A DNA stretch of 14,702 bases, taken from the NCBI GenBank assembly GCA_043810925.1, contig JBDRNT010000147.1:1-14702 (forward strand), written 5' to 3'. Under the pieces are notes generated by a model. It was given only the letters and a program-made list of their open reading frames with translations. It was not told the origin of the DNA and searched no databases. Of the stretch, positions 325 through 14,702 are shown one piece after another (within the stretch, counting starts at the first letter, position 1; each line of letters starts with the position of its first letter). The position numbers and the translations under genes are program-made. This DNA is from Candidatus Eiseniibacteriota bacterium. GTDB taxonomy: Bacteria; Arandabacterota; Arandabacteria; Arandabacterales; Arandabacteraceae.

Positions 325-410
325 GATCCACAGCGCGGGATAAGCGCTCCCTGCCGACCGCGATCAGGGGGGGGCGGAAAGAGCCTGCCGGGCGGGGGAG
401 CGGGGGAGGC
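325..410 (+). repeat. Two copies of the CCTGCC/G-rich intergenic repeat family
   Basis: GATCCACAGC...CCTGCCGACC (325-359) resembles 9134-9166. GCCTGCCGGGCGGGGGAGCGGGGGAGG (383-409) is nearly identical to 5728-5755. Confidence 0.75.
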
Positions 411-441
411 GTTTCCGCTTCAAGAACACGGTCATGGGGCA

Positions 442-2685
442 TCACGGCAATTTGCAGAACATCTCCCATTCTTCTTTCACCTTCACCATCAAGCGCCGGA
501 ATCTCCCATCCTCTCGGAGGGACTCGAACGACGTGTCACAGCTCGAAAGGAACGGATAGTTCACAAATCCGCACTTCACCGCATTCTCCAGCCAATCGAG
601 AGCTTCATCATGCATGCCTAGAAGGGCGTATCCCGCCGCGATCCTCCACGAGTACTCGAGATCCCTCCGAGAGGTTTTTGTCACCGCCTTGTCTATTTGC
701 ATCTCAGCCCTTGAACGCTCCCCGTTCCTTGCGTAGAGAAGAAACAGCAACAGACGGTCAAAGTCCAGCTTCGGCGAAGCGCCTTCTGACATTGCCATTA
801 ACGGGTCAGTCTCCGCCAACCTCCCTCCATATACAAGTGCGAAAGCATAGTGCATCCGAATTGCGGCATTGTCCGGCTCAAGCCCCCAGGCCACACGACA
901 GGCTTCAATCGCATGATTGAAACGGCCGCCCATGAAAGCAATCTCCGCACTGACGATGTGTCCGATCGGCGTCAGAGGATCTACTAGGAGAATTCTCTCA
1001 GGAATAGTCTCCGTCGCGGTCAGATTGCCTACCAGTGCATAGGTATGACAAAGCCAGTATAGACAGTCCACATTATTCGGCTCAATCTCCAGAGCGCGCT
1101 TCAAGTGCCCAATCCGAGAGCGCTGATCTCCCCGAAAAGCCCCGGACACCTGGCCTAGTACCAAATGGCCTAATGGTAGGTTTGGGTCGATTTCAAGGGC
1201 CTTCTGTGCCAATTCCTCCGCCTTGTCAATCTCTTCCTCCTGCCCCAGCCCCATGTTCACTTGGTGCCAGTACGCATAAGCCAACCCGGCGTACAATGCA
1301 GCATTCTCCCCGGCAATCTTCAATCCAGCTTCAAGGTATCGAATCGCCCCTCTTGAAGCGGACGCATTGTATCGCCATAGTTCACGGCGAGCCCGCAATA
1401 GGTATTCGTATGCCGTTACATTCGATACCTCTCGCGAGATCAGTTGCTGCCGTTCAACCGTGCTTAGTTTTAGCTTCAAGGCTTCGACGATGTCCTGGGA
1501 AACCTGCGTCTGCAGAGAAAAAACGTCGCCCAAGACACCCGTGTAGTGCTCCGCCCATACCTGGCTATCCCGCTGGGCATCGACCAAGCGGGATGTGATG
1601 CGCAGTCGGCCACCCGCTTTGCGTACACTGCCCTCAAGCAGATACTGGACATTGAGTCGCGCGGCGATCGTCCGAGTATCGTGCTGCGAACCTCGGAGCT
1701 TCATCGCGGAACTCCGCGATATTACTCTCAGGGGCCCAATTCTCGAGAGGTCTGTGATGAGCTCCTCGGTGAGCCCGTCAGCGAAGTACGCGCTGTCCTG
1801 CTCAGGACTAAGGTCTTCAAAGGGGAGTACGAGAATGGACATTTCGTCTGTATGTTCTGCTTGATTCTGTGCTCTGTCGGGCGAGTTGGTTATTGCGGAT
1901 TGGAACTCGTTGGCAGTCGCGAGACGTAGGTCCCTGTCCTTCGCGAGCATGTTTACAATTGCTTGCTCGAGATTCGTCGGGATCTCTGGTTGGAAGGCGG
2001 TGGGCGGCGTCACATCGGCATTGAGTATCAAGTAGATCAGCGCGGCCTCGTTGTCGGCACGGAAGGGACGGTAGGTCGTTAGCATTTCATAGAGGACGGC
2101 TCCGAGAGACCACAGGTCTGTCCGGTGGTCTACCGGTTCCCCCCGTATCTGCTCAGGAGACATGTAGGCGACTGTGCCGACCATAGTTCCCGGCCTTGTG
2201 ATGGCTGTGCCCCCCCTCATACGGGCGAGGCCGAAGTCCATGACTGTCGCTTTGCCTCTCGCCGTGAGCAGGATATTCTCTGGTTTGATGTCCCTGTGAA
2301 CGATCCCTTTCTCGTGTGCTTCCTTAAGACCATCAGCAATTTGGTCGGCTATTCTCACCGCTTCTTCAATCGGGACTGGTCCCCTCTGAATCTTGTTGCG
2401 CAGACTCTCCCCGTCGTAGTAGGCCATGACGATAAACAGACGTCCCTCCGGGGTTTCATCGATCTCGAAGATAGTGCAGACATTGGGATGGTCGAGGGCG
2501 GACGCTGCTTGGGCCTCGTGAAGGAATCGTTGTTTGGCTTGGTCGTCCTGTGTCAGCTCGGGAGGCAGAAACTTGATGGCCACGGTTCGCCTGAGCTTCG
2601 TGTCCTCGGCCTTGTAGACCACGCCCATCCCTCCCTCGCCGATCTTCTCAAAGATCTTGTAGTGGGAGATGGTCTGGCCGATCAT
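442..2685 (-). CDS. Hanks-type Ser/Thr protein kinase with TolB-like N-terminal-type domain and TPR repeats
   Basis: Intact kinase motifs GEGGMGVVY, VAIK, HRDIKPEN, DFG, MSPE and DLWSLG. These are followed by SILVLPFEDLS...YFADGLTEELITDL...LRVISRSS...LLEGSVRKAG (TolB-like module) and TPR-like helices. MIGQTISHY (ATG 2685) is the typical start of this family; the ORF track extends it to 2703. Confidence 0.93.
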   Translation of the reverse strand: MIGQTISHYKIFEKIGEGGMGVVYKAEDTKLRRTVAIKFLPPELTQDDQAKQRFLHEAQAASALDHPNVCTIFEIDETPEGRLFIVMAYYDGESLRNKIQRGPVPIEEAVRIADQIADGLKEAHEKGIVHRDIKPENILLTARGKATVMDFGLARMRGGTAITRPGTMVGTVAYMSPEQIRGEPVDHRTDLWSLGAVLYEMLTTYRPFRADNEAALIYLILNADVTPPTAFQPEIPTNLEQAIVNMLAKDRDLRLATANEFQSAITNSPDRAQNQAEHTDEMSILVLPFEDLSPEQDSAYFADGLTEELITDLSRIGPLRVISRSSAMKLRGSQHDTRTIAARLNVQYLLEGSVRKAGGRLRITSRLVDAQRDSQVWAEHYTGVLGDVFSLQTQVSQDIVEALKLKLSTVERQQLISREVSNVTAYEYLLRARRELWRYNASASRGAIRYLEAGLKIAGENAALYAGLAYAYWHQVNMGLGQEEEIDKAEELAQKALEIDPNLPLGHLVLGQVSGAFRGDQRSRIGHLKRALEIEPNNVDCLYWLCHTYALVGNLTATETIPERILLVDPLTPIGHIVSAEIAFMGGRFNHAIEACRVAWGLEPDNAAIRMHYAFALVYGGRLAETDPLMAMSEGASPKLDFDRLLLFLLYARNGERSRAEMQIDKAVTKTSRRDLEYSWRIAAGYALLGMHDEALDWLENAVKCGFVNYPFLSSCDTSFESLREDGRFRRLMVKVKEEWEMFCKLP

Positions 2686-2856
2686 CACAGCCCCCAAGCG
2701 CATGTGAGGAGTGACTTGTCGGTGATCATTGTAGCATCAGTACTGGAGGATTCCGACATGAAGGACTCGCGAGGAGGATCATCTGCTGGTGGAAGGAACG
2801 CGTCCTCCCCAACCTCCCATAGGCCGCGTTGTTGAACCAGACCGCTTCGCGGGACT

Positions 2857-3468
2857 CACGTAATCCGCTAGGAGTAAACGGAACGGTCGCAGGTTCGCAT
2901 TTCCGCAAACCGCGTCTCTGTAAGTCGCTATAATTATTGAAGATAGAACTGGCTCCCCAGGTAGGACTCAAATAACAACTTTTGGGCGGGAATGTCGGTT
3001 GGCTAAGTCGCGACGGACAGCGCGGTTACAGGCTTGCACTTTCGGGCTCTCGCCTGTGGCAGCAGAGACTCAGGGACTTTCGGCCGTTTTCACGGGATCA
3101 CGCCTGAGATCGGCCCTCTCGCGAGGCCGGGAATCGGGCCGTTTCGTCGGATTGCCCGTATGCTGCGGCCTTCCAACTCGCTCCTTGGCTTCAAGCTACC
3201 CCACCCATTGTGCCCGAGCCCCGTGCGCATTCCCGTGAGATCCCGGTACGAGATGCCTGCCGCCACGAGGCCAAACCGGCACAGCAGCCGCGCCTCCACA
3301 CACGCCAGTATTATTATAGAGGGCAAATCTATCGCAGCGCCCCCCCCGCAATCACTGAATCAGAGAGCCAGGGCCGCGAATCCAGCCTTGCTGGGGCAAA
3401 ATCGACCCAGATCTCGGCTTTCCGTAACCTCTGTGAATCCAACGCCGACGGAGTTTTCGATAGGCACA
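2857..3468. repeat. Copy 1 of ~610-bp diverged non-coding direct repeat (island junction / attP-like region)
   Basis: Collinear blocks shared with 13946-14553: CACGTAA, AACGGTCGCAGGTT, a 45/46-identical block (2947-2992), GGCTAAGTC, GCTCTCGnCTGTGGCAGCAGAGACTCAGnGACTTTCGG, CGGATTGCCC, GGCTTCAnGCTAC, ATAGAGnGCnAATCTATCGC, GGGCCGCGAATCC and GTAACCTC. Confidence 0.92.
2950..2969 (-). mobile_element. att core: 3' fragment of tRNA-Asn (T-arm 3' half, acceptor stem 3' strand, CCA)
   Basis: The minus strand reads (TTT)GAGTCCTACCTGGGGAGCCA, matching a tRNA end TTCGAGTCCTAC-CTGGGGA-G-CCA. A72/G73 with GGAGCCA is typical of bacterial tRNA-Asn. The 5' part of the tRNA is absent. Confidence 0.85.
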
Positions 3469-3570
3469 GGCGGAGCGGGCACCGTTCGGCGCGCTGCGTC
3501 TGAGACTCGGGTCCTTTGAGCGCTGGTTCATTCCTAGATTGCGGTTAGCCATGACGCAGCGGAGGAGGAA

Positions 3571-5340
3571 ATGAGCAATATAGGAGAGTTGCAGGTCTCG
3601 TACACAGCAAGGGGCCTGGTACGCTATCAGGTTAGGGTTGAGCACCAAAGCCTTCACAAGGTTCAGGAGATCAAGGGCGACAACCAGGCAATAGTGCTTC
3701 AGAAGGCGTATGCCGTGGCGGCGCGATGGGATGAGATGTGGGAAGCCCGCCAAGAGACAGAGAGGAAGCGCAAGGAGCGAGCAACCGCCGCCAAAGATGT
3801 CGAGGCGAAGAATCAACTTGCGGCGGAACGCACACGAGAGGCTCAGGAATTACACGAGTTTCTCAATCGGACTCTCGAGAACACACTCTCCATCGATGAC
3901 ACGATCGACTGGGACGGCCTGATTGACGATTCTGAGTACCCGGAGCCGGACCCCCAACGTCCCGCAAACCCTCCTCCCCCTGGAGCTCCCGAAGCTCCAA
4001 GAGAACCACAAGCGGACGAGCCTTGTTTCCAGCCGAAGCTAGGATTGATAGACCATCTGGCACGTGGGAAACGAGCGAGAAAGGAGACGGCTGCTAGGGA
4101 AGCGTTTGAAACAGCACACCGGGAGTGGGAATCAACCATATCCGACCAGAAGCAAAAGCACAGCGAGGCCATAGAGAGACACAAGCGAGCGTTACGAGAA
4201 GCGGGTCAGAAACACGAGGAGGCTCGGCGTCACTGGCAGGCGGAGCGGGAGAAGTACAAGAAGGCGCAAGGTGAGCGAAACGCTGAGGTTGAAACGAAGC
4301 GTCAAAGCTACGCAGCTGGAGATCCAGACTCGATAATGGACTACTGCGGAATGGTGCTGGATAATTCCTCCTACCCGGACTTCCTACCTCAATCGTACGA
4401 TCTCGAGTACAATCCCGAGAACCGCATTCTCATACTAGACTACCGCTTGCCGTCACCACAGGACCTTCCAACGCTGGTCGAGGTCCGGTATGTGAAGTCT
4501 AAAGACGAGTTCACTGAGAAGCACCTGTCAGATTCCAAGCTCAACCACCTGTACGACGATCTGCTGTACCAGATTGCCCTTCGCACGATACACGAGCTCT
4601 TCGAGGCCGACGTGATTCGCGCCATCGATAGCATTGTCTTCAACGGGTACGTCGAGTCAATCGATGCGGCCACGGGCCAGGAGACCAACGCCTGTGTTCT
4701 CACGGTGCAGGCTTCCCGCGAGGAGTTCGATGGTATTAACCTTGCGGCGGTCCAACCCCGAGCCTGCTTCAGGAAACTCAAGGGCGTGAGCAGCGCCCGA
4801 TTGCACAACCTGGCTGCTGTTGCTCCGATACTCGCACTTTCGCGAGAGGACAGGAGGTTCGTTCCTTCGCACGCTGTGGTCGATGCAATTGCGGAAGGAG
4901 ACAACCTTGCCGCAATGGATTGGGAGGATTTCGAGCATCTCATTCGGGAACTCTTTGAGAAGGAGTACTCGGTCGTCGGTGGGGAGGTGAAGGTGACTCG
5001 CGCCAGTCGCGATGGCGGCGTCGACGCTGTGATCTTCGACCCTGATCCGCTTCGAGGTGGCAAAACCGTAGTCCAAGCAAAGAGGTACACTAACACGGTG
5101 GGAGTCAGCGCCGTCAGGGACCTATATGGCACCGTATTGAATGAGGGAGCCAACAAGGGGATCCTCGTTACGACCTCGGACTATGGCCCCGATGCCTATG
5201 CGTTCGCGAAGGGCAAGCCCCTGGTCCTGCTGAGCGGTGGGAATCTACTGCACCTTCTCGCAGAGCACGGACACAAGGCGAGGATCGACCTCCAGGAAGC
5301 GAAGAGGCTAGCGGCTGAGAAACAGCAGGCAGAACACTAA
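3571..5340 (+). CDS. Mrr-family restriction endonuclease with long N-terminal coiled-coil/Pro-rich extension
   Basis: C-terminal Mrr_cat motifs WEDFEHLIRELF, SRDGGVDAV, VVQAKRY, VGVSAVRDLYG and KGILVTTSDY. SD GGAGGAGG lies at 3561-3568. Confidence 0.9.
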   Translation: MSNIGELQVSYTARGLVRYQVRVEHQSLHKVQEIKGDNQAIVLQKAYAVAARWDEMWEARQETERKRKERATAAKDVEAKNQLAAERTREAQELHEFLNRTLENTLSIDDTIDWDGLIDDSEYPEPDPQRPANPPPPGAPEAPREPQADEPCFQPKLGLIDHLARGKRARKETAAREAFETAHREWESTISDQKQKHSEAIERHKRALREAGQKHEEARRHWQAEREKYKKAQGERNAEVETKRQSYAAGDPDSIMDYCGMVLDNSSYPDFLPQSYDLEYNPENRILILDYRLPSPQDLPTLVEVRYVKSKDEFTEKHLSDSKLNHLYDDLLYQIALRTIHELFEADVIRAIDSIVFNGYVESIDAATGQETNACVLTVQASREEFDGINLAAVQPRACFRKLKGVSSARLHNLAAVAPILALSREDRRFVPSHAVVDAIAEGDNLAAMDWEDFEHLIRELFEKEYSVVGGEVKVTRASRDGGVDAVIFDPDPLRGGKTVVQAKRYTNTVGVSAVRDLYGTVLNEGANKGILVTTSDYGPDAYAFAKGKPLVLLSGGNLLHLLAEHGHKARIDLQEAKRLAAEKQQAEH

Positions 5341-5379
5341 CCTTGATTTTGCATAAACTGCGACACCGAATTCGGTGGG

Positions 5380-5514
5380 CGGGAGCCAGGGGGCCAGGGC
5401 TGGCTTGCTCAAACAGTCCTCGCGCGCCGACCCAAACATTTAGGCGTCCCGCCACAGAGGGTGAGGCCGGCGCGCTGCGGAACTCGCCGCTCAGCCCTAA
5501 CCCCCTGGCTCCCG
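5380..5514. other. Long imperfect inverted repeat (rod-like hairpin, ~135 nt)
   Basis: CGGGAGCCAGGGGGCCAGGGCTG (5380-5402) pairs with CAGCCCTAACCCCCTGGCTCCCG (5492-5514) at 21/23 positions. GCGCGCCG (5422-5429) / CGGCGCGC (5468-5475) is nested inside. A perfect palindrome CACCGAATTCGGTG (5364-5377) precedes it. Confidence 0.7.
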
Positions 5515-5707
5515 ACTTGGCCCGAGACGAGCGATTTTTTGGAAAATCGAGGCTAATCCACGCGGCGCGGCTCATGGTTCCGCTCATAGACCATAGGCTC
5601 TGCCGAGCTCCACGAAGAGCTAATCGGCGTGGTCGGCGTTTTCACGTCGACGCACATCAGCTGCGGCGCGTGTGCGTCGCACCGTGGTTTGCGGGGAGCG
5701 CCGCGAC

Positions 5708-5755
5708 GACCCACTGCGCCAATCTGCGCCTGCCAGGCGGGGGAGCGGGGGGAGG
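5708..5755 (+). repeat. CCTGCC/G-rich intergenic repeat copy
   Basis: GACCCACTGCGCCAATCTGCGCCTGCC resembles GATCCACAGCCAGGCAATCCGCGCCTGCC (9134-9162). Positions 5728-5755 differ from 383-409 by one substitution and one extra G. Confidence 0.8.
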
Positions 5756-5831
5756 GGTGGCCTATGTGGTATTGATGGCGATTGCATCTGATAGGCATAG
5801 CCCAATTCCCCGGCGAGGAGGTCTTCGGATC

Positions 5832-6506
5832 ATGAAATACCTGTTGATTCTAACCGCAGTGGCTATCTGCTCCCCCGTTTTCGCTCAGACCTTTTCTGAC
5901 GGGACGTTTTCGTCTTCAGACTGGTCACTCCTAGTCATTGAATTCGGCCCCGGCGGTTCGGCAAGCGCCTACCAGGAATCTGCCGGTGGAAATCCTGGGT
6001 CATTCCGCTGGTACACGCACACAGTAAACGAACCAACGCCCACTGAGGGCTCCCTAATTCACGTCTATCATATTCGAGAGGATGCGGTCTGGGATCCTTC
6101 TGCGGATGGACCCATCGAGTCAGTCGGCTTCAGCGAGGATCGGATGACGGAGGAGATCACTTCCACCATTATGATCGGGGGGACCATCGCCTTACGGCAG
6201 AACGGTGTGTTCTTCTGGTCTAACACGGCTTACACTATTGACCATGGAGGCTGGCAGACGCTGTCCGCAGGAGGTCTGCTGTCTTCTGACTTCCGGGCTT
6301 CTGTGGACTCAACGCTTCACCCTGACTTCACGACAATGGGTGAACCAATATACTTCGGATTCATGCGGGCGAATTCTCGCGATGCCGGATATCCCGGCAC
6401 TGTGACGACCAGTGGGGGCACTGACAACTCGTCGGTGAGCGTCACGCCCTCGCCTGTGGCCGTTGAGTCTGCATCGTGGAGCCAGATCAAGAGGCGGTTT
6501 CGCTAG
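5832..6506 (+). CDS. Secreted hypothetical protein (224 aa) with C-terminal W-x-x-I-K-x-x-F-R tail
   Basis: SD GAGGAGG (5815-5821) precedes ATG 5832. Signal peptide MKYLLILTAVAICSPVFA|Q, a beta-rich S/T/G/D body, and the end PVAVESASWSQIKRRFR. The upstream extension to 5343 in the ORF track is non-protein-like and crosses repeats. Confidence 0.85.
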   Translation: MKYLLILTAVAICSPVFAQTFSDGTFSSSDWSLLVIEFGPGGSASAYQESAGGNPGSFRWYTHTVNEPTPTEGSLIHVYHIREDAVWDPSADGPIESVGFSEDRMTEEITSTIMIGGTIALRQNGVFFWSNTAYTIDHGGWQTLSAGGLLSSDFRASVDSTLHPDFTTMGEPIYFGFMRANSRDAGYPGTVTTSGGTDNSSVSVTPSPVAVESASWSQIKRRFR

Positions 6507-6512
6507 AAGGCG

Positions 6513-6539
6513 CACGCCCTGCCGGGCCGGGAAGGCGTG
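6513..6539 (+). repeat. CCTGCC-containing hairpin directly after stop codon
   Basis: CACGCC-CTGCCGGGCCGGGAA-GGCGTG begins 7 bp after the TAG of 5832-6506 and has no U-tract. Confidence 0.5.
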
Positions 6540-6573
6540 ACGCCATGAACCCGTATTGCAGGAGGTTGTAGTC

Positions 6574-7338
6574 TTGACTCTTGTGTTGTCTGAATTGAGC
6601 ACGCTCGGGATTGCGATGGCTGCTGATTCCGCAGTGACCTATACCCATAGTCTGACCGGTCTAGCGCATGCACACCCAAACGCAGCTCGGAAGTTGCACT
6701 CCGTTCCCTATCTCAGCGCCGTAATTTCTTGCTGGGGAGTCGGCACCATCGATGATACGCCCACTGATGAGTGGTTGGCTTCATTCATTAGTAGCAGCAC
6801 CTCTGCCGGATCACTCACAGAGTTCGCTGAGTCCCTCGCAGATAGCCTGAACCGGCTTGTTATACCAACGAGCACGAACGAGAGCTCTCTGGGATTCCAT
6901 CTCAACGGATTCGAACCCCATGAGGGCGAGCGGTATCCTTCGTCTTTCCACATTCACGACGGTATGAGCACAACCCTTCGTGATCGGGGAATCTCAGTCG
7001 ATCCCCACAGATTCAACGCAAACCATGATATTCCTCCAAGTCTCTTTCGAGAGATGGCCGCACGCAACGAAGCGTGGATTACCCGGAACGGTGACTATCG
7101 CTTTTACGCAGAGATCTTCCAGCGGCTGGAGGCGTTCTTCGCCAGTCTTCGGTCCCACGGGATCATGATCCCTGATTCTCACACCATCGCTGACCGAGCC
7201 GAGTACTTGGTGTTTCAGATTCGCACAGTTTCACATCTATACCGCCTGAGCAATCTTGTCCCGGGCATCGGTGGAGGAATCCGGTACATGACCATTACGC
7301 CCGCCGGCATTGAAAGCGAAGGAGTACAATACTACTAG
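6574..7338 (+). CDS. Ntn-hydrolase fold protein, proteasome beta / HslV / Anbu-like (254 aa)
   Basis: SD GGAGG (6561-6565) precedes an in-frame TTG at 6574, giving (M)TLVLSELSTLGIAMAADS. This places Thr1 and Asp17 at proteasome-beta spacing, with an ARKL lysine motif and a C-terminal GIGGGI resembling the SGG motif. Confidence 0.75.
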   Translation: MTLVLSELSTLGIAMAADSAVTYTHSLTGLAHAHPNAARKLHSVPYLSAVISCWGVGTIDDTPTDEWLASFISSSTSAGSLTEFAESLADSLNRLVIPTSTNESSLGFHLNGFEPHEGERYPSSFHIHDGMSTTLRDRGISVDPHRFNANHDIPPSLFREMAARNEAWITRNGDYRFYAEIFQRLEAFFASLRSHGIMIPDSHTIADRAEYLVFQIRTVSHLYRLSNLVPGIGGGIRYMTITPAGIESEGVQYY

Positions 7339-7427
7339 AAGACTCTCTGGTCGACCGATCCTTGAGCACTGGTTTGGCACGGCTCTTCAGCGGAAAGGGC
7401 GTAAGATGGGCGTCTCAGAAAAGAAGG

Positions 7428-7694
7428 CTATTCTAGTTGGTCCTCCAACAACATCATCATGAACTCCAATTCTTCAACTTTGGCCTGAAGATCCGAGATT
7501 TCGGACTCCTGCCCCTTCAGTTGTCTTTCAAGATCATCGATACGCGACTCGGCGTCTTCGATGCGCATCGAGGCGTCTGCCAGGTTAGCTCTTAGAGCCC
7601 GACCTTCTTGACATCCACATGATCCGATTACAGCCAAGACAGCCGCCAGGCAGAACAGACGGTTCACCTTCCGAAATACAAGACTTCCCCCCAT
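7428..7694 (-). CDS. Small exported/lipoprotein-like coiled-coil protein
   Basis: Basic N-terminus, a hydrophobic stretch ending VIGSC (lipobox-like), then heptad-patterned IEDAESRIDDLERQLKGQESEISDLQAKVEELE. Confidence 0.6.
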   Translation of the reverse strand: MGGSLVFRKVNRLFCLAAVLAVIGSCGCQEGRALRANLADASMRIEDAESRIDDLERQLKGQESEISDLQAKVEELEFMMMLLEDQLE

Positions 7695-7726
7695 TGCGCA
7701 TTGTTCCTTCCTGAGAAGAATCTAAT

Positions 7727-7855
7727 CTACCGTAGGGCCGAGCTGAGCAGCGTGATCTTCCTCGTCACGACCTCATCCCCCGCCTTGAGCCTGGCGAAGT
7801 ACACGCCAGAAGCAACAGGTGCTCCTGTTGCATCGCGGCCGTCCCACTTTAGCCG
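7727..7855 (-). pseudogene. Remnant of a C-terminal FlgD Ig-like domain
   Basis: LKWDGRDATGAPVASGVYFARLKAGDEVVTRKITLL matches only the second half of the FlgD-Ig tail (compare LVWDGCDDRGIPLGGGLYFLRL...RKVILLR at the end of 10648-12417). The upstream residues are not FlgD-like, lacking the NPFNP motif. Confidence 0.75.
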
Positions 7856-8237
7856 CGGTTCCTCTGAAGCGGGTCGATCCGCTCCCGGCGGGTGCGCCTC
7901 TCGGATTCGCTCTCTCGTGAACCTGCCATGGCTCCTGAATGAGGCGGGGATCTCCCCCACCGGCTCGGTCGTTCGTGCTGCCCGCCTATTCTACCATCCC
8001 GCAAGGTGTTTGATTCACGAGAATTAGGTGTCCCTAGTGGTCCCGGCCATGTGGCGCAGGTCGACGACTGGCCTTTTCCTTTGGCCCGTCTAGGTTTACA
8101 GGTCTGGTATCTCGGCCGCGGCGAGTGATATTCTTCGAAGCAGCCGGTTATGCTGTCAGGTCCCAATCCGGTCGGGCCAGAATTCGACGGACCGAAGCAC
8201 GGCGGCGGATACTTTTCGAGAAACCGGGAGGTCAGTA

Positions 8238-9080
8238 ATGGAACAAGTCGACCAGGCCGCTCACGCCCAGAGAATCTGGAACGGAATCCACGAGACTTAC
8301 CGGCGACTTCAGACGAAACCCGAGGAAGCGATCGCCCCCCAGAATAATTCCGGTAGTGAGCCGCACCAGGAATACCTCCCGGACACCATGTGGCGAATCC
8401 CCGTGATCAAGAAGAGCGACGACCAGCTGTACAGCGACCTCTGCTTCTGCGTCTTTAACGCTGGGATAAAGGGGAGTCTTCTCGATTCAAAGTGGCCAGG
8501 TATTGCAAAAGCATTCGCTGGATTCCGAGTCGATGAGGTTGCGGCGTTCCCGCAAGACTATGCGGAAGTCATCCTCACGGATCCTACTGTCCTGCGGAAC
8601 CGGCGGAAGATCACGGGCTGTCTCAAGAACGCATTGGAAGTTGGCAAGTTGCGTCATCAATGGGGTTCGTTCGCCATATACCTTACGAACTACGCCCAAG
8701 AGCACGGACCCAACGCTCTCTCCGACGACATACAAGCTCGGTTTTCAGGAATCGGCCCTGCAACTGGTCCCCAGTTCCTGAAGGATCTCGGCTTCGACAT
8801 GTTCAAGGCGGACGCTCATGTTAGGAATATCCTATATCGGACCGGACTAATTACAAGCAAGAATGCGTCTGCACATGACGTTTCATCGGCCTTCGGGCTA
8901 CTCATTGGTGCAGAATCGGAGCGAACCGGGCGACGGAACATTTGGTTGAGTAGCATAGACTGGATCTTGTACTGCTTCGGAATTGGGGAAGAACTCGAAC
9001 ATCCCGTCTGTAAACCGGGAAAGCCTCTCTGTGACGAGTGCGGCGCTTCACCTTCTTGCCCTAAGAATGGGGTGAAGTAG
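8238..9080 (+). CDS. DNA glycosylase-like protein: 3-methyladenine glycosylase I (Tag)-like N-part, HhH-GPD-type D-x-H motif and EndoIII-type [4Fe-4S] motif
   Basis: SDDQLY..L...VFNAG.....KWPGIAKAFAGF....VA....DPTVLRNRRKI...LKNA resembles Tag. FSGIGPATGPQFL is HhH-like, followed by KADAHVRNILYRTG and CKPGKPLCDECGASPSC (C-X6-C-X2-C-X5-C). SD GGAGG lies upstream. Confidence 0.8.
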   Translation: MEQVDQAAHAQRIWNGIHETYRRLQTKPEEAIAPQNNSGSEPHQEYLPDTMWRIPVIKKSDDQLYSDLCFCVFNAGIKGSLLDSKWPGIAKAFAGFRVDEVAAFPQDYAEVILTDPTVLRNRRKITGCLKNALEVGKLRHQWGSFAIYLTNYAQEHGPNALSDDIQARFSGIGPATGPQFLKDLGFDMFKADAHVRNILYRTGLITSKNASAHDVSSAFGLLIGAESERTGRRNIWLSSIDWILYCFGIGEELEHPVCKPGKPLCDECGASPSCPKNGVK

Positions 9081-9085
9081 AGCAT

Positions 9086-9185
9086 GCCTGCCGACCGGGC
9101 TCGCGGGAGGAGGAGGAGGGGTGGGGCGTGTGTGATCCACAGCCAGGCAATCCGCGCCTGCCGACCCGAGCAAGCGGGGGAGAGG
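9086..9185 (+). repeat. Two CCTGCC/G-rich intergenic repeat copies
   Basis: GCCTGCCGACCGGGCTCGCG (9086-9105) starts 6 bp after the TAG and is identical to 9785-9804. A second copy GCCTGCCGACC lies at 9156-9166. Confidence 0.85.
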
Positions 9186-9203
9186 ATCGGTGGGCTGCGA
9201 GTA

Positions 9204-9212
9204 TGGTATCAT
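9204..9212 (+). promoter_or_regulatory. Possible extended -10 promoter element for 9255-9767
   Basis: TGgTATCAT fits TGnTAnnnT about 43 bp upstream of the GTG start. No good -35 element. Confidence 0.3.
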
Positions 9213-9254
9213 TCCATCACGGTTGAAACAGCGTTTGTGCCTAAGGAGTGACTT

Positions 9255-9767
9255 GTGCCCCCTTGGATCTCCATCGCCCTGCAGATTCTTGGCGTGGTCG
9301 GTGTGGTAGGCTCCCTTGTCCTTATCTGGTGCCAAACACGGGTAGACCACAAGCAGCGGCGGCGTGAGTCGACTATGTCGTTTATCGCGGCCATGTCCGA
9401 GTATCGCTCCATCGATCACGAGCTATATCCAACTGCGAGTGATTCGGAGACCGGTATGTCGCCACAGATGATTGATCAACTCCTCGCGGATCTGATTGAC
9501 TCGGCTAAGGCGGCGGAGTTAGTCGCTCAGCTTGAGAACTTTGCCGCCGGCGTGAACCAGGGCGTCTTCGACATTGATGTCGTCAACGCAGCGAAAGGCG
9601 GATATCTTCTCTCCTTCTATGAGCGGTGGCGGCCGTACATGCAAGCTAGAATCAGGACCTCGTCTTACCCCAATCGCCTTTTTGACCAGATTGAGAAGCT
9701 CGTAGCGGATATCGCCAAGAAGCGGGGCAAGCCAATCCAGGCACCCCTCGATCGGAGACAGGGATAA
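9255..9767 (+). CDS. DUF4760-like membrane-anchored protein
   Basis: SD AAGGAG (9243-9248) precedes a GTG start. N-terminal TM helix, RRRESTMSFI, LENFAAGVNQGVFDIDVV and LFDQIEKLV follow the DUF4760 pattern as I recall it. Confidence 0.65.
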   Translation: MPPWISIALQILGVVGVVGSLVLIWCQTRVDHKQRRRESTMSFIAAMSEYRSIDHELYPTASDSETGMSPQMIDQLLADLIDSAKAAELVAQLENFAAGVNQGVFDIDVVNAAKGGYLLSFYERWRPYMQARIRTSSYPNRLFDQIEKLVADIAKKRGKPIQAPLDRRQG

Positions 9768-9784
9768 AGAAGCGACAGCAGATA

Positions 9785-9894
9785 GCCTGCCGACCGGGCT
9801 CGCGCGGCGGAGCGGGCAGGATAGCCTGCCGAGCGGGCGGACCGGCCAGCATCGCCTGCCAGCCGGGCTCGCGGGCGGAGCTGGGCTGGAGGCG
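9785..9894 (+). repeat. Three tandem CCTGCC repeat copies forming imperfect hairpins
   Basis: GCCTGCC occurs at 9785, 9824 and 9854. CCTGCC...GGCAGG pairs over 9786-9820. CGCCT-G-CCAGCC...GGCTGG-AGGCG (9853-9894) forms an 11-bp stem with one bulged G. Confidence 0.85.
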
Positions 9895-10043
9895 GATGGG
9901 ATTTGCAGTTGGGAAAGGGCGAGTCAGTGACCCGATGAGGCCCACCGTTTCAACTCTAAGATCCGCTCAGAGCTGAAGAAACGAATTTACAGAAAAGATG
10001 TTACACCCCCAAGAACAAAGGGACAGTTCTCAACAAAGGGCAC

Positions 10044-10586
10044 TCAGCGGAACATCGTCTTGATCATGCCCCATGTCGACTCTTCTGTACCCGTAGGGCC
10101 GGTCTGGACAGTTCCACCAATGATCTCAGACCATAGGTCACCTATCCAACCGCACGTGTCATAACCTCCAGTCAGCCCGACGACTTCCGCCATTGAATTG
10201 TCTTCGACTGCTCGGTAGGTCACCGTGGCACAAAGATAGGGAAGCGCCATACAGTCTGCGAACTGCAGATCCGCACCCTGCACGATAATGCAGTCACCAG
10301 GAGTAGGAGGTACGCCAACCCAGCCGGGACCGAGCAAGAAGTACTCGCACCCCTGAAATTCCAAAGACCTGTCGTAGTTGCAGAATGTGACGCTATAAAC
10401 GAATAATCCCCCATCATGCGGGTTGCCAAGGAGCCATATATCCACCAATACATAGCTGTTGACCTCAACTTCGATGTGATCAGGGCCGTTGCCGACGATT
10501 TCGTCGAAGTCGAGTTCGACGTACGGTTCACTGGCCATTGTGGAAAATGCCATGCACAGGCCGCCTAGTATCGCCAATGTCTTCAT
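10044..10586 (-). CDS. Secreted protein (180 aa), beta-sandwich/cohesin-like domain, C-terminal TWGxIK tail
   Basis: SD GGAGG upstream, signal peptide MKTLAILGGLCMAFSTMA, and the end PTGTEESTWGMIKTMFR. The body is homologous to the N-terminal domain of the 13664 gene. Confidence 0.85.
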   Translation of the reverse strand: MKTLAILGGLCMAFSTMASEPYVELDFDEIVGNGPDHIEVEVNSYVLVDIWLLGNPHDGGLFVYSVTFCNYDRSLEFQGCEYFLLGPGWVGVPPTPGDCIIVQGADLQFADCMALPYLCATVTYRAVEDNSMAEVVGLTGGYDTCGWIGDLWSEIIGGTVQTGPTGTEESTWGMIKTMFR

Positions 10587-10647
10587 TATCTTCTAGACCT
10601 CCCTCCATTCATATCAGACGCGAAAGCTACCCATCATTAATCAACAG

Positions 10648-12417
10648 TTATCTCAAGAGAATTACCTTCCGGCAGATGTCCAGGTCATGCGCCCAAAGCC
10701 TCAAGAAGTAGAGACCCCCGCCAAGGGGGATTCCTCGATCATCGCAGCCATCCCAAACAAGCATTTTGGCGCCGGCTTCCTCATATCCGGCCACCAGACT
10801 CCTAACGTGCCGGCCCCGGATGTCATAAGCGTTGATTGCAATAAATCCGGATTTTGAAAGATAATACTGTATGGTGACAGCCGGGTTGAATGGATTCGGG
10901 TAACTCTGAAGGAACACACTTCCCAAGCCGGTGTGTGTGTTCAATACTGTGGTGGGAACATCGAAAAAGAACCTCGATATGAATCCATCCGTATCACTGC
11001 TGTCACTGCCGTCTCCCAGTGTAGTGTCGTAGACTTCAGGTGGGGTAGCCGGGAAATCTATAGACGAGGTTGTACCCCCAAGGACAACAATTCCTGTGGT
11101 GTTGGTGGCCAGTGAAAATCCACGATCGCTGCTGCTTCCCCCGATATAAGATGAATAAAGAAGTTCCTGACCACCGGCATCCAGCCTCGCAAGAAACGCA
11201 TCATGATCACCGCCACCAAACAGAGGATAATCCGCATCAGGCGTTACCGGAAAGTCGTTCGATTCCGTCTCGCCGCTGACATTTATGTTCCCGAACCTGT
11301 CAACTGCTAATGCCCAGGCCCGATCCTCATCGCTGCCTCCAAGATAGGTTGAATAGACCAAGGTACTGAGATCAGAACTTAACTTCGCTATGAACAAATC
11401 CCGGGGTCCGCCCAACGTGCCATAGAGACTGTCATCTGTCATTGGGAAATCGTCAGATCTTGTACCTCCGGCCACAACCACATTGCCCAGACTGTCTCTC
11501 CCAATGCCGTACGCCGCTTTTTCTAAATCGGACCCTCCTAGATATGTTGAGTGACGAAGGAAGCCTCCGGTTGAATCGATTTCCGAAATAAATATATCCA
11601 AGGTTCCGCTGAGGGATGTGTCATAGGCATCTGATGTAACAGGAAAATCATCGGAATCAGTCATTCCCGTTATGTATGCTTTTCCGGAATCACCTAGCAT
11701 TACCGAAAAAGGATAGTCTGTAGATGATCCTCGCAAGAACGTTGAATAGGTAAGTGTGTCTCCAGATGAGCCCAGTCTTGAAACATATCCATCCCAACCA
11801 TAATTCGGCGCGTGGTCTTCCTCGTAGGCTCCGGGAGTCGTTGGGAAATCTGCGGATTGCGTTCTCCCACACAAGAGAATACTGCCGTCGTGAGTCAACG
11901 CCAATCCGTACGCTCGATCAGAAAATTCCACGCACCCACCATCATCTTCACCGCCAAGAAACCTTGAAAATATCAGACTGTCTCCATCTTCATCAAGTTT
12001 GGTTATAAAACAGTCGCTGCTCCCACCATTGTACGATGATTCATCTGTAACGGGGAAATCTTCTGACATTGTCCAGCCAGATATCACTGGGTTTCCAGCG
12101 GGGTCAACGGCAATCGGATGAGGCCAGTCGCCACTCGATCCTCCTAGAAGCGTAGAATAAACAAGTACTTCGCCTTCCGGTTCGATTTTCGTAACGAACC
12201 CGTCATAGGGTCCTTCGAGCAGCGAATCATAGGCGCCGGGCGTAGTCGGGAACCCAGTGGATCTCGTGAATCCGGTAACATACGTGTTTCCCAGCGAATC
12301 GAGAGCTACTCCAAGGACTGTGTCGTAGTCGATCCCGCCGAGAAACGTACTCCAAACAAGACCCGGATCAATAACAAGCGGAAGCGAGGAATCGTAAGAA
12401 GAGGCTTCAAATCCCAC
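10648..12417 (-). CDS. C-terminal part of SBBP-repeat protein: repeated propeller blades plus FlgD-Ig tail
   Basis: Repeated units (Y/W)ST(F/Y)LGG...D....IAVD..GN.YV.G.T.S.DFP.T..AYD......D.FV.K. The tail is SYPNPFNPAVTI...WDGCDDRG...GLYFLRL. This is not a true start but the continuation of the upstream ORF. Confidence 0.85.
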   Translation of the reverse strand: MGFEASSYDSSLPLVIDPGLVWSTFLGGIDYDTVLGVALDSLGNTYVTGFTRSTGFPTTPGAYDSLLEGPYDGFVTKIEPEGEVLVYSTLLGGSSGDWPHPIAVDPAGNPVISGWTMSEDFPVTDESSYNGGSSDCFITKLDEDGDSLIFSRFLGGEDDGGCVEFSDRAYGLALTHDGSILLCGRTQSADFPTTPGAYEEDHAPNYGWDGYVSRLGSSGDTLTYSTFLRGSSTDYPFSVMLGDSGKAYITGMTDSDDFPVTSDAYDTSLSGTLDIFISEIDSTGGFLRHSTYLGGSDLEKAAYGIGRDSLGNVVVAGGTRSDDFPMTDDSLYGTLGGPRDLFIAKLSSDLSTLVYSTYLGGSDEDRAWALAVDRFGNINVSGETESNDFPVTPDADYPLFGGGDHDAFLARLDAGGQELLYSSYIGGSSSDRGFSLATNTTGIVVLGGTTSSIDFPATPPEVYDTTLGDGSDSSDTDGFISRFFFDVPTTVLNTHTGLGSVFLQSYPNPFNPAVTIQYYLSKSGFIAINAYDIRGRHVRSLVAGYEEAGAKMLVWDGCDDRGIPLGGGLYFLRLWAHDLDICRKVILLR

Positions 12418-12449
12418 AGTCTCAACGCCAAGAAGAACGTATCCACCGT

Positions 12450-13664
12450 TTACTTCCAGCCTTGCGCCGCCTCTACCTGGTACAGGGTAGGCTTGGCTTC
12501 AATCATGTCTCCAAGGGCCGTAAAAATCAACAGGGCTCCATCATCACGAATACAAAGGCTGTCGTGGCCTTCGTAGTCTAACGCGAATGCGCTCGGTTCT
12601 GTGCCGGGCTGCACGACCACATCGTATTTGAGATAGCCATCTGACCCTTGATAGTACTCGACATCAATCCCCGGACAAAGTTCTCTGTAGGTAATTCCAC
12701 TGTACGAAGGAACGTCTGTACACCAACGTGCTGGGTCGTTCCCTAGAAAGAAATTGAATTTTCCTGGAAGCTCCTCAGCTGTGTTAATCTGAGAGGCGTA
12801 TCTTGCACCTTCGAAATGTGTTTCAACAACAACTCCCTGAACATGAAGCGTAGTTGGAATAGGAGCGTCCCAACTTGGATCAGACCACGAGTCACTCACG
12901 AACTCACGCTCGAGCACTCGGAATCGATCAACTACTACTTCTGTGTCCAAGAAATACACTGTGCCGCCCGATCCCCTGATATAATACTGCACGGCATCAG
13001 GGAGTTGCCCCTCGTTTTTAATGAAACGAATGGGATGGGATGCAACACTCGCAAGACCATCTCCAGACCAGGCTGGCGATTCACCTTCGCCAGAATCTTC
13101 TCTCCCGCCACTTTGTTCCCCACCATCCTCTCCACCATCCAGCACCGAATCCACACAGATCGTCGGGCCTTCAAAGGCAACGAAGGTAGACTCGCCCACA
13201 TCCTTGTTGAACCAGGCAGACAAGTCCGGATTCCATTCCAGCGTCCCGCATGAATCCCCCGGAGTGACGTAGAATTTCAGTCGAGCAAACTCGTAGGGCA
13301 CCTGAATCGGTGTTGAGATGGAGAAATCTGTGGCCTGGAGAAGGAGCCAGCCCAGGGAGTCTTGCTGCACAGAGGTGTTCGTCCAGCCTGACGGTGAGTT
13401 GTAGATGGTGGCCGTAGTTTCTTCCACCCATGAGAGCGCGCCAGTCGTGTCTCCCACAGTGACGCCGTACGAAATGACCGAGTCGGTGCCGGTGAACCAG
13501 AGTCGCACGAGCACCGTATCGGTCGGTTCGATCTGGAGCGTGTCGGGACCGTTCGTCGCGTTCGAGTCCAGGTCGGCGACGATGGAGAGACCGGCCAGAG
13601 CCTGTGGAGCCGTAAATTGCATGAGAGCCACCAACGCCAGTACGATCGGCAATGAGCGACGCAC
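12450..13664 (-). CDS. N-terminal part of SBBP-repeat protein: signal peptide, cohesin-like domain, acidic G/E/S linker, and the conserved pre-SBBP domain
   Basis: SD AAGGAGG (13676-13670) precedes GTG 13664. Signal peptide (M)RRSLPIVLALVALMQFTAPQALA. Motifs FIKNEGQ, NFFLGNDPARW, ITYRELCPGIDVEYY, LKYDVVVQPG and DDGALLI. The ORF-track start at 13895 is probably over-extended. Confidence 0.85.
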   Translation of the reverse strand: MRRSLPIVLALVALMQFTAPQALAGLSIVADLDSNATNGPDTLQIEPTDTVLVRLWFTGTDSVISYGVTVGDTTGALSWVEETTATIYNSPSGWTNTSVQQDSLGWLLLQATDFSISTPIQVPYEFARLKFYVTPGDSCGTLEWNPDLSAWFNKDVGESTFVAFEGPTICVDSVLDGGEDGGEQSGGREDSGEGESPAWSGDGLASVASHPIRFIKNEGQLPDAVQYYIRGSGGTVYFLDTEVVVDRFRVLEREFVSDSWSDPSWDAPIPTTLHVQGVVVETHFEGARYASQINTAEELPGKFNFFLGNDPARWCTDVPSYSGITYRELCPGIDVEYYQGSDGYLKYDVVVQPGTEPSAFALDYEGHDSLCIRDDGALLIFTALGDMIEAKPTLYQVEAAQGWK

Positions 13665-14017
13665 AGGAGCCTCCTTTGTCAGGAACGAACCTTGGGATTC
13701 GGGTTCCGACACGCCGGGGATGGCCACTCGGTAGTGATCCATGGGCTCCTGAGCGTTGGAGTGGCCGGTGCCAGTACATTCAAGGTAGCAGCGGTTTCGC
13801 GGCTCGTCGAATGTCGGGGGGTAAAGTCTCTGGCGTGATCTCAGAGACCAGAGATCGGTGGCGGGTGGGCTGTGGAGTCCTGGCAACGACGCCACAAACG
13901 AGGGATGCGTGATGCTCCAGGATTGCTCCGGTCTTAGCCGTTGTCCACGTAACCCCTTACGGCTAGGTTTGTAAACTAAACGGTCGCAGGTTTGTTCTTG
14001 CGAATACCGTATCTCTC

Positions 14018-14030
14018 TAAGTCATTGATA
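14018..14030. promoter_or_regulatory. IHF-consensus binding site next to att core
   Basis: TAAgtcaTTGATA is a perfect match to YAAnnnnTTGATW, 15 bp from the tRNA-derived core. Copy 1 keeps only TAAGTC (2921-2926). Confidence 0.5.
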
Positions 14031-14045
14031 TTGCTGGAATTAAAC

Positions 14046-14065
14046 TGGCTCCCCAGGTAGGACTC
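14046..14065 (-). mobile_element. att core: 3' fragment of tRNA-Asn (second copy)
   Basis: Identical to 2950-2969 and lies within the 36-bp exact match 14043-14078 / 2947-2982. Confidence 0.85.
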
Positions 14066-14702
14066 AAATAACAACTTTCGGGCGGGAAGGTGCGTCGGCT
14101 AAGTCACAATGGAGTCGCCAGTTGCAGCGGCTGGGTTTCCTGCTCTCGGCTGTGGCAGCAGAGACTCAGAGACTTTCGGGCATTTCCGCCGGAACGCGGC
14201 CCCTTTCGGCCCGCCCCTGGGCACAGAAACTCGGCCAATTGGCGGATTGCCCCGGGTGTGGATCTGGCAACCCGTTCTGGGGCTTCATGCTACATCGCCA
14301 GGTGGGCTCGAAATGGCCATACATTTCCGGGTAAATCAGGTGCGGCACACGTACGGCATCAAGGCAAAATCGGTACAGATTGCGGGCCTCAGATGCCCCT
14401 TACATAGAGAGCGAATCTATCGCTGCAACAGCCCAGCCACTATTGGGCAGCGGGCTTGGGCCGCGAATCCCACACCACCGAATCCAAATCAGCCCCGAAC
14501 TCCCCATCTGTAACCTCAGCCAGCTCAGCGCGGACGAGTTTCCGGTAGGGACACCCCGTGCCTAGCCTGACTTCCGCAGTTTCGTGCCTCTCGCGGTTTT
14601 TTTCGAGGAGGGGGACGGTATAAGTGTGTGTCCTTGCGTGCTGGGTGGGCGCGGAGGGCCATGTAGTGCCGACCTACCCCCTTGCCTGAGCGGTTTTGAT
14701 CT

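Follow-up and report, generated by a model that had tools for sequence, protein, structure and literature searches.

Two copies of the 3' end of a tRNA-Asn gene lie in direct orientation, 11,096 bp apart, in a stretch of bacterial DNA in which ARAGORN finds no tRNA gene, and the locus raises the question of how they came there and what the DNA between them is. The stretch, referred to below as the window, is the complete contig C147 (14,702 bp) of a metagenome-assembled genome (MAG) of Candidatus Eiseniibacteriota, G000, whose assembly comprises 185 contigs and 3.85 Mb at a completeness of 91.7%. The answer that we favour, with a confidence only a little above even, is that the fragments mark attachment-site junctions from serial integration at tRNA-Asn, and that the junctions enclose a non-autonomous island of 11.1 kb resembling a cis-mobilizable element (CIME). 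The phylum is a small uncultured lineage, for which the comparison set was made up of 18 species-level genomes (G000 and 17 others). G001 denotes the sister species, in the same genus as G000, and L090 a locus of another MAG that carries an intact tRNA-Asn(GTT). Parts of the window were also present, as short assembled contigs, in three DNA runs of one study, and in no RNA run among those listed. These community contigs cannot reveal rare forms, and stretches of the window that they do not cover are uninformative.

A diverged repeat around an exact core

The two fragments are embedded in diverged direct repeats of ~620 nt each, located at ~2857-3480 and ~13950-14560. The repeat search resolved these into four collinear pairs of direct blocks (2874-2926 and 13971-14023; 2947-3017 and 14043-14113; 3040-3116 and 14136-14212; 3361-3383 and 14448-14470), spaced 11,087-11,097 apart, and blastn aligned copy 1 with copy 2 over 226 nt at 76.5% identity (E = 2e-39). 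The central 227 nt of the repeat are 75% identical between the copies and the repeat as a whole 63% (399 of 632 columns over 2857-3480). This similarity is unevenly distributed. The exact stretch common to both copies is the 36-nt core AACTGGCTCCCCAGGTAGGACTCAAATAACAACTTT, at 2947-2982 in copy 1 and 14043-14078 in copy 2, where 36 of 36 columns agree. To its left lies a short arm (2874-2946, P'-like), identical to 13971-14042 in 50 of 73 columns (68%). To its right is a long arm (2983-3480, P-like), in which the inner segment 2983-3100 agrees at 84 of 118 columns and the outer segment 3101-3480 at 217 of 380 (57%). Outside the repeat, identity falls to 28-38% (18 of 65 columns for 2800-2856 and 57 of 152 for 3481-3620). 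All three arm segments outscored 200 of 200 shuffles, the far right arm with a global score of 54 against -66 +/- 8.6 in shuffles, whereas sequence past either end did not. We therefore take the left arm to be ~73-90 nt and the right arm ~500 nt long, which, with the segment identities, places the limits of the repeat at ~2857-2874 to ~3480 and at ~13950-13971 to ~14560; the boundaries are fuzzy and without sharp ends. The original prediction, made from the letters of the window alone, had described the same pair of fragments at the same distance, with homologous sequence of ~90 bp to their left and ~500 bp to their right, and in these respects it was borne out, but over its outer 380 nt the right arm is only 57% identical. 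Its identical core of 46 bp was too generous: the 36-nt exact stretch is followed by one mismatch and nine further matching bases.

An exact run of this length would be expected ~0.001 times in sequence that is ~70% identical (our own arithmetic), and the neighbours of the core are 68-71% identical. Judged from its sequence, the core thus has the appearance of a crossover or core-binding site, and seems to be either under constraint or in the course of being homogenised.

The core can be traced to a tRNA gene. Its minus strand reads ...TTTGAGTCCTACCTGGGGAGCCA, and the final 20 nt, from midway through the T-loop to CCA (2969-2950 in copy 1 and 14065-14046 in copy 2, both on the minus strand and the same in both copies), agree at 20 of 20 positions with the end of the L090 tRNA-Asn(GTT). 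The 20-mer is at most two mismatches away from the tRNA-Asn genes of four further relatives. It occurs at least 126 times in 122 public loci that were fetched with it, and among these listed matches a crude check of the T stem found 91 in which a matching stem precedes the 20-mer and 35 in which it does not. At least four of the latter (L045, L067, L087 and L094) look like whole genes with a variant arm, which leaves, among the matches listed, ~30 bare 3' fragments. Nearly all of these begin at ..TTC/GAGTCC, the slash marking the breakpoint, exactly as the repeats of the window do. A breakpoint at this place is the hallmark of integrases whose crossover falls within the T-loop, in agreement with the earlier suggestion that the core is a tRNA fragment of the kind that integrases leave behind.

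Further tRNA-Asn 3' fragments without a tRNA occur in the family: G001 and G011 have three each, and G000 has two besides those of the window (on contigs C103 and C154). Their sequence type (..TTCAAGTCCTG[T/C]CCGGGGA..) is a different one, and they have in common short upstream motifs that are peculiar to them. Taken together, the sequences suggest that tRNA-Asn is a hotspot in this lineage. One of these fragments deserves separate mention. At positions 22790-22817 of C103 in G000 (L169) and 15820-15845 of C197 in G001 (L162), an orthologous M20 peptidase gene is followed immediately by a tRNA-Asn-like fragment with a full T arm and acceptor strand, and the two loci are 83% identical over 1.25 kb. 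Two readings fit this fragment, an attachment site of secondary rank and old date, and a tRNA-like tail that has been conserved. Since it follows the same conserved gene in two species, not every fragment marks a recent island.

Nothing in the arms suggests that they encode protein. Mismatches between the copies are spread over the three codon positions as 67/63/56, i.e. without codon periodicity, several frame pairs score alike in tblastx, and insertions and deletions break the frames. Although open reading frames (ORFs) of 105-161 aa overlap both copies, as a duplicated gene or an old segmental duplication might leave them, no Pfam family matches the ORFs of the arms at E up to 1. Both junction repeats are non-coding, and an origin as the remnant of a duplicated gene, which the earlier note had itself raised as an objection to its reading, is highly improbable. 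A 25-nt similarity between 6446-6470 and a block of the arm was treated as chance.

What the arms do contain is a short reiterated motif, CTTTYGGSC, which was picked after inspecting the sequence and is present six times in the window against an expectation of 0.58. All six sites lie in the arms, on the plus strand and three per copy (at 2979, 3039 and 3077 in copy 1), partly at positions that do not align between the copies. They look like putative protein-binding sites that have undergone turnover.

The repeat might also represent a non-coding RNA, ~500 nt long and structured, whose 3' end resembles a tRNA. A consensus fold of the two copies retains 6-7 pairs through changes on both sides, and one terminator-like site follows copy 2 on the plus strand (14582-14596). 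However, the apparent covariation is similar on both strands, because the fit uses only two sequences, and promoter and terminator scans gave sites no commoner than in shuffles. Fold z-scores for the two copies on both strands (+1.26, -0.52, +2.36 and -0.37) carry no signal of stability, and Rfam at permissive thresholds matched nothing in the repeat, its sole match in the window being a chance-level snoRNA at 162-234 (E = 0.22). An RNA of this kind can hardly be the explanation.

Proposed integration at tRNA-Asn and the alternatives to it

If the repeats are attachment-site junctions, site-specific recombinases would target the T-loop-to-CCA end of tRNA-Asn, and related elements would integrate successively downstream of that gene (tandem accretion). 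Each junction left by accretion would consist of a long arm (P), the 36-nt core and a short arm (P'), in that order, as seen in both repeats. Recombination between the two cores would then free a circle of 11,096 bp. Pfam and PADLOC scans and six-frame searches, with ORFs shorter than 80 aa scanned in part, found no integration or transfer genes in the unit; Pfam scans of 19 ORFs of the window gave no recombinase, and none of the 14 PF00589 or 4 PF00239 matches of a six-frame search of the whole genome lies on the contig. The absence of a recombinase between the copies had already been noted from the letters. Because the gene content includes none, the unit would be non-autonomous and CIME-like, and only an integrase coded elsewhere could excise it as a circle or move it along with a neighbour. 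We infer both that integrase action made the junctions and that such a trans-acting enzyme exists. Whether the unit can still move is another matter, and we think that doubtful.

The location of the tRNA gene itself was approached through the sister species. ARAGORN finds 41 tRNAs in G000, and tRNA-Asn is not among them, but contig C17 ends 18 nt into a tRNA-Asn gene. The 4.86 kb upstream of the intact tRNA-Asn of G001 match C17 at 84% identity, with 88% over the last 110 nt, whereas the 5 kb downstream of it have no collinear match in G000. C17 therefore carries the native tRNA-Asn locus. The break in the assembly falls within the gene, and this is precisely the point at which synteny in the genus stops. 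As the fragments in the window are on the minus strand, the intact gene is expected to its right, and the orientation of C17 fits. The contig itself ends 140 nt past copy 2. C17 would lie to the right of C147, and both position and orientation make an intact tRNA-Asn past the right edge plausible. What answers to the earlier expectation of such a gene is a truncated tRNA-Asn of fitting orientation at the end of another contig; an intact gene was not seen in G000, and no sequence joins C17 to C147.

Several observations weigh against integration at this gene, or at least against recent activity. The tRNA-Asn of G001 ends in AAGTCCTGCCCGGGGAGCCA, which matches the core at 17 of 20 nt, so the core is unlikely to be a plain duplicate of the end of the resident gene. 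The 5' end of the gene on C17 (TCCTCGG) also pairs better with the G001 ending than with the CTGGGGA of the core, and with an element carrying the core, the resident tRNA would acquire a C-A mismatch in its T stem. The 14 PF00589 matches sit on eight other contigs, none of them C147 or C17, and have no sequence link to the repeats, so that the tyrosine integrase predicted nearby was not found on either contig. Nor were the additional co-oriented copies that had been anticipated: the 3.85-Mb, 91.7%-complete assembly holds two and no further copy, even for single conserved blocks; the repeat is present in none of the 17 other genomes of the phylum, and blastn did not find it in phage or plasmid collections. 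A 23-nt pattern of the core gave no exact match in the metagenome contig collection, and a 20-nt block of the arm none in either the metagenome or the viral contig collection. The 20-nt tRNA part, used as a pattern, matched viral contigs three times, each time in an intact tRNA-Asn gene. The arms are also old, with the outer 380 nt 57% identical, and the structure may be a fixed relic. A weaker point of the same kind is that the joint expected of the excised circle (left arm of copy 2 with right arm of copy 1), which the original prediction had proposed to look for, is not among the listed community contigs, which cannot show rare forms.

The community contigs nevertheless hold the only hints of further copies. 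One of 280 nt spans 2840-3119 without differences and so confirms junction 1. In a second sample, one contig joins a variant of the left arm to copy-2-like sequence from 14013 on. Another contig aligns with the left arm of copy 1 up to 2927, resumes at 14142 in the right arm of copy 2 and afterwards passes over 79 nt, with its middle unaligned; it has the topology of an excision scar, and we read it as a further diverged junction. These left-arm and mixed-block forms imply at least one further junction variant in the community. The flanking sequence differs in other contigs, with a change at 2888 and two alternative forms at 14562, positions that are the edges of the repeats. Two community contigs, from two samples, match the last 140 nt of the window (14562-14702) but have different sequence just before 14562, the outer edge of copy 2, and this segment therefore occurs in more than one context.

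Flanks that change at the repeat edges would also suit a dispersed repeat without coding function, or a shared regulatory module, in which a tRNA-derived 20-mer happens to be included and which was copied without tRNA-targeted integration, the 11 kb in between being ordinary chromosome. Both copies lie just upstream of minus-strand genes (a kinase gene starting at 2703 and a DUF7948 gene), their boundaries are fuzzy, and the fragment behind the M20 peptidase places a tRNA-Asn-like sequence in a housekeeping context in two species. Against this, the repeat search of the window found no terminal inverted repeats or target duplications at the module, the genome holds no further copy, and there is no promoter-like site in either copy. 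The tRNA breakpoint is the same as in integrase-type fragments elsewhere, and the enclosed genes, as described below, are accessory. On balance we regard a dispersed repeat as distinctly improbable.

A closer competitor accepts that the junctions arose by integration at tRNA-Asn and holds that they are now scars in a fixed chromosome, in which the short left arm is flank captured by imprecise excision, the kinase gene is native, there are at most two units and nothing moves. The divergence of the arms (399 of 632 columns identical), a probable gene remnant inside the unit, the lack of an integrase linked to the repeats and the three differences in 20 nt between the core and the tRNA of the sister species are all in keeping with such scars. 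So is the presence of a Ser/Thr kinase gene after tRNA-Asn or a fragment also at L090 and on G001 contig C48, which could reflect an ancestral neighbour; the three kinases are, however, paralogues and not orthologues. An exact core of 36 nt amid neighbours of 68-71% identity argues instead for continuing constraint or homogenisation, and the community contigs hint at other junction variants and at other flanks at 2888 and 14562. We consider fixed scars unlikely.

Serial integration enclosing a non-autonomous island remains our preferred account. The claim of at least three units depends on the 73-nt left arm at 68% identity, and imprecise excision that captured flanking sequence would explain this arm equally well. 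A bolder version would have tRNA-Asn anchor a longer array, in which recombinase-less multi-gene islands are shuffled, excised and re-inserted by one distant integrase via ~620-bp modules (a 36-nt invariant core with CTTTYGGSC arms), as a kilobase-scale counterpart of the integron that trades defence and surface-protein genes. The window would then hold one complete and two partial units, and the junction variants of the community would belong to further units. We think an array on this scale quite unlikely.

Relation to described islands

In the sections of the Dehalococcoides report drawn on here (McMurdie et al. 2011, PMC3146451), a number of islands stand in tandem downstream of a single small-RNA gene, ssrA, and are bounded by 20-bp direct repeats of the 3' end of that gene. 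Insertion takes place in the T-loop region, extra sequence is conserved around the repeats, and 15 of the ssrA islands, which have no integration module, were interpreted as cis-mobilizable elements. The resemblance to the window extends to the proposed tandem arrangement, the 20-nt repeats of a gene's 3' end, the conserved sequence around them and the units without an integrase. The two cases differ in that the Dehalococcoides target, as described in those sections, is tmRNA, that a serine recombinase gene overlaps the repeat there, and that dozens of repeats were compared across strains, whereas the window has tRNA-Asn as its target, two visible junctions and a much longer conserved arm (~500 nt).

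CIMEs and tandem accretion, as in ICESt1/ICESt3-type elements, are defined in a review (PMC5704250), in whose relevant passages such elements stand in tandem with related ones at the 3' end of a target gene and share a chimeric internal att site. The unit of the window likewise has putative att sites on both sides, in the form of two junctions with an identical core and homologous arms, and lacks integration and transfer genes. In the accretions treated in those passages, however, there is a functional neighbour with a matching integrase, either an integrative and conjugative element (ICE) or an integrative and mobilizable element (IME), and cis-mobilisation was shown by experiment. Similarly, the microcin H47 island of Escherichia coli, as presented in the part of the report of Azpiroz et al. 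(2011, PMC3191183) used here, is 13 kb long, has extensive imperfect direct repeats and no recombination genes, and excises and integrates with functions provided in trans, the recombination taking place inside segments in which its repeats are identical. It shares with the unit its small size, its imperfect direct repeats and the lack of a recombinase of its own; the difference is that the mobility of the H47 island was demonstrated experimentally.

The likeness to integrons, which the original prediction had emphasised, is one of logic only, namely that recombinase-less units are stacked at repeated recombination sites. The window has no IntI, attI or Pc in view, and the repeats give no hairpin-type folding signal of the attC kind (z from -0.5 to +2.4). 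Where an integron cassette is a promoterless single gene, the unit is 11 kb long and has at least nine genes on both strands. Measured against the features of tRNA-targeted islands, the locus shows a repeat that is the 3' part of a tRNA, variable presence with broken synteny, and a mildly atypical composition, and has no integrase inside the unit.

The phenomenon is thus already described, and no new class of system is opened by this locus; what is new is the unusual lineage and the unusually long conserved arm. If the favoured account is correct, the range of a known mode of island formation, in which non-autonomous islands accrete in tandem at a tRNA gene, would extend to a barely studied uncultured phylum, and tRNA-Asn would be a lineage hotspot for the gain of defence genes (a type IV restriction enzyme and a glycosylase-like protein) and of genes for secreted proteins. 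The long conserved arm with its reiterated motif would then offer a handle for finding the matching integrase.

Genes of the enclosed unit and its flank

The unit opens with a gene for a type IV methyl-directed restriction enzyme (3571-5340, plus strand), with Mrr_cat at its C-terminus (Pfam Mrr_cat, 5.6e-32; PADLOC mREase_IV, 4.9e-68). On the same strand follow a secreted protein of no known family (5343-6506, with a likely start near 5832), which ends WSQIKRRFR, and a protein of 260 aa (6556-7338) that has no match in Pfam, PADLOC or NCBIfam. A short minus-strand ORF of 77 aa (7727-7960) has a weak match to the end of FlgD_ig (E = 0.003, below the curated cut-off), and is probably the remnant of a secreted-protein gene, marking a point of rearrangement inside the unit. 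The plus strand then encodes a DNA glycosylase-like protein with the Adenine_glyco fold (8238-9080; Pfam 1.4e-15, PADLOC OGG 2.7e-6) and, by Pfam, a DUF4760 protein (9255-9767). The remainder is on the minus strand: a small secreted protein that ends WGMIKTMFR (10044-10586), an SBBP beta-propeller repeat protein with a FlgD_ig / T9SS-type C-terminal domain (10648-12417; Pfam and NCBIfam) and a secreted DUF7948 protein (12450-13895; Pfam). The unit also codes for a small coiled-coil protein on the minus strand.

These genes are accessory. Of the 17 other genomes of the phylum, one has the restriction enzyme and none has the 260-aa protein, and comparison of the window with five relatives gave only paralogue-level kinase matches and one match to the restriction enzyme. 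In G002, neither a tRNA-Asn fragment nor a repeat arm lies within 1.5 kb of the restriction-enzyme homologue. In composition the unit is mildly atypical: its tetranucleotide distance falls at the 96th percentile, and at a GC content of 0.525 the stretch 10001-13950 ranks under the 1st percentile of 5-kb windows.

The idea that proteins with secretion domains are the special cargo of tRNA-Asn fragments was rejected, as 145 FlgD_ig matches in the genome make adjacency expected by chance. These 145 matches, from a six-frame search of G000, show that proteins with such secretion-type C-termini make up a large share of the genome. The two small secreted proteins of the unit both end in W[GS]xIKxxFR followed by a stop codon (6477-6503 on the plus strand and 10047-10073 on the minus strand). 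In the wider form W[GSA]x[IVL]Kxx[FYL][RK], the pattern has 58 six-frame matches in G000, 56 of them within three residues of a stop, and it looks like a putative C-terminal sorting-type tag of ~56 proteins.

On the far side of copy 1, the minus strand carries the gene of a Ser/Thr kinase with TolB_N-like and TPR regions (442-2703; Pfam), which belongs either to the native flank or, as its first gene, to a further unit. In three genomes, tRNA-Asn or a fragment is followed 230-400 nt downstream by a Ser/Thr kinase gene on the same strand, namely at 442-2703 of the window, at 5940-8000 of L090 and on C48 of G001 (L164, 8849-9769). As evidence for an ancestral neighbour of tRNA-Asn this was rejected, the kinases of L090 (41-45%) and C48 (56% protein identity) being paralogues whose similarity is confined to the kinase domain. 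Kinases are numerous in the relatives, each of which has from 4 to 20 DNA matches to the window, nearly all of them to this gene.

Two smaller repeats were noted within the window. A GC-rich repeat of ~27 nt (GCCTGCCGACCGGGCTCGCGG-like) is present in six intergenic copies just after genes (349-409, 5728-5754, 9086-9112 and 9785-9880), and community contigs join such copies to each other (335 to 9087 and 9111 to 9786). Genome-wide, a loosened form of the motif has 77 matches against ~69 expected (10 in 0.555 Mb of shuffled sequence, scaled), i.e. no enrichment. The second, at 5380-5514, just after the restriction-enzyme gene, is a 23-nt inverted repeat that is 91% complementary, with its halves 89 nt apart. 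In community contigs, differences are concentrated here at 5430-5461, and loose ends occur at 5457 and 5513. The repeat could represent a hairpin that varies or a small insertion.

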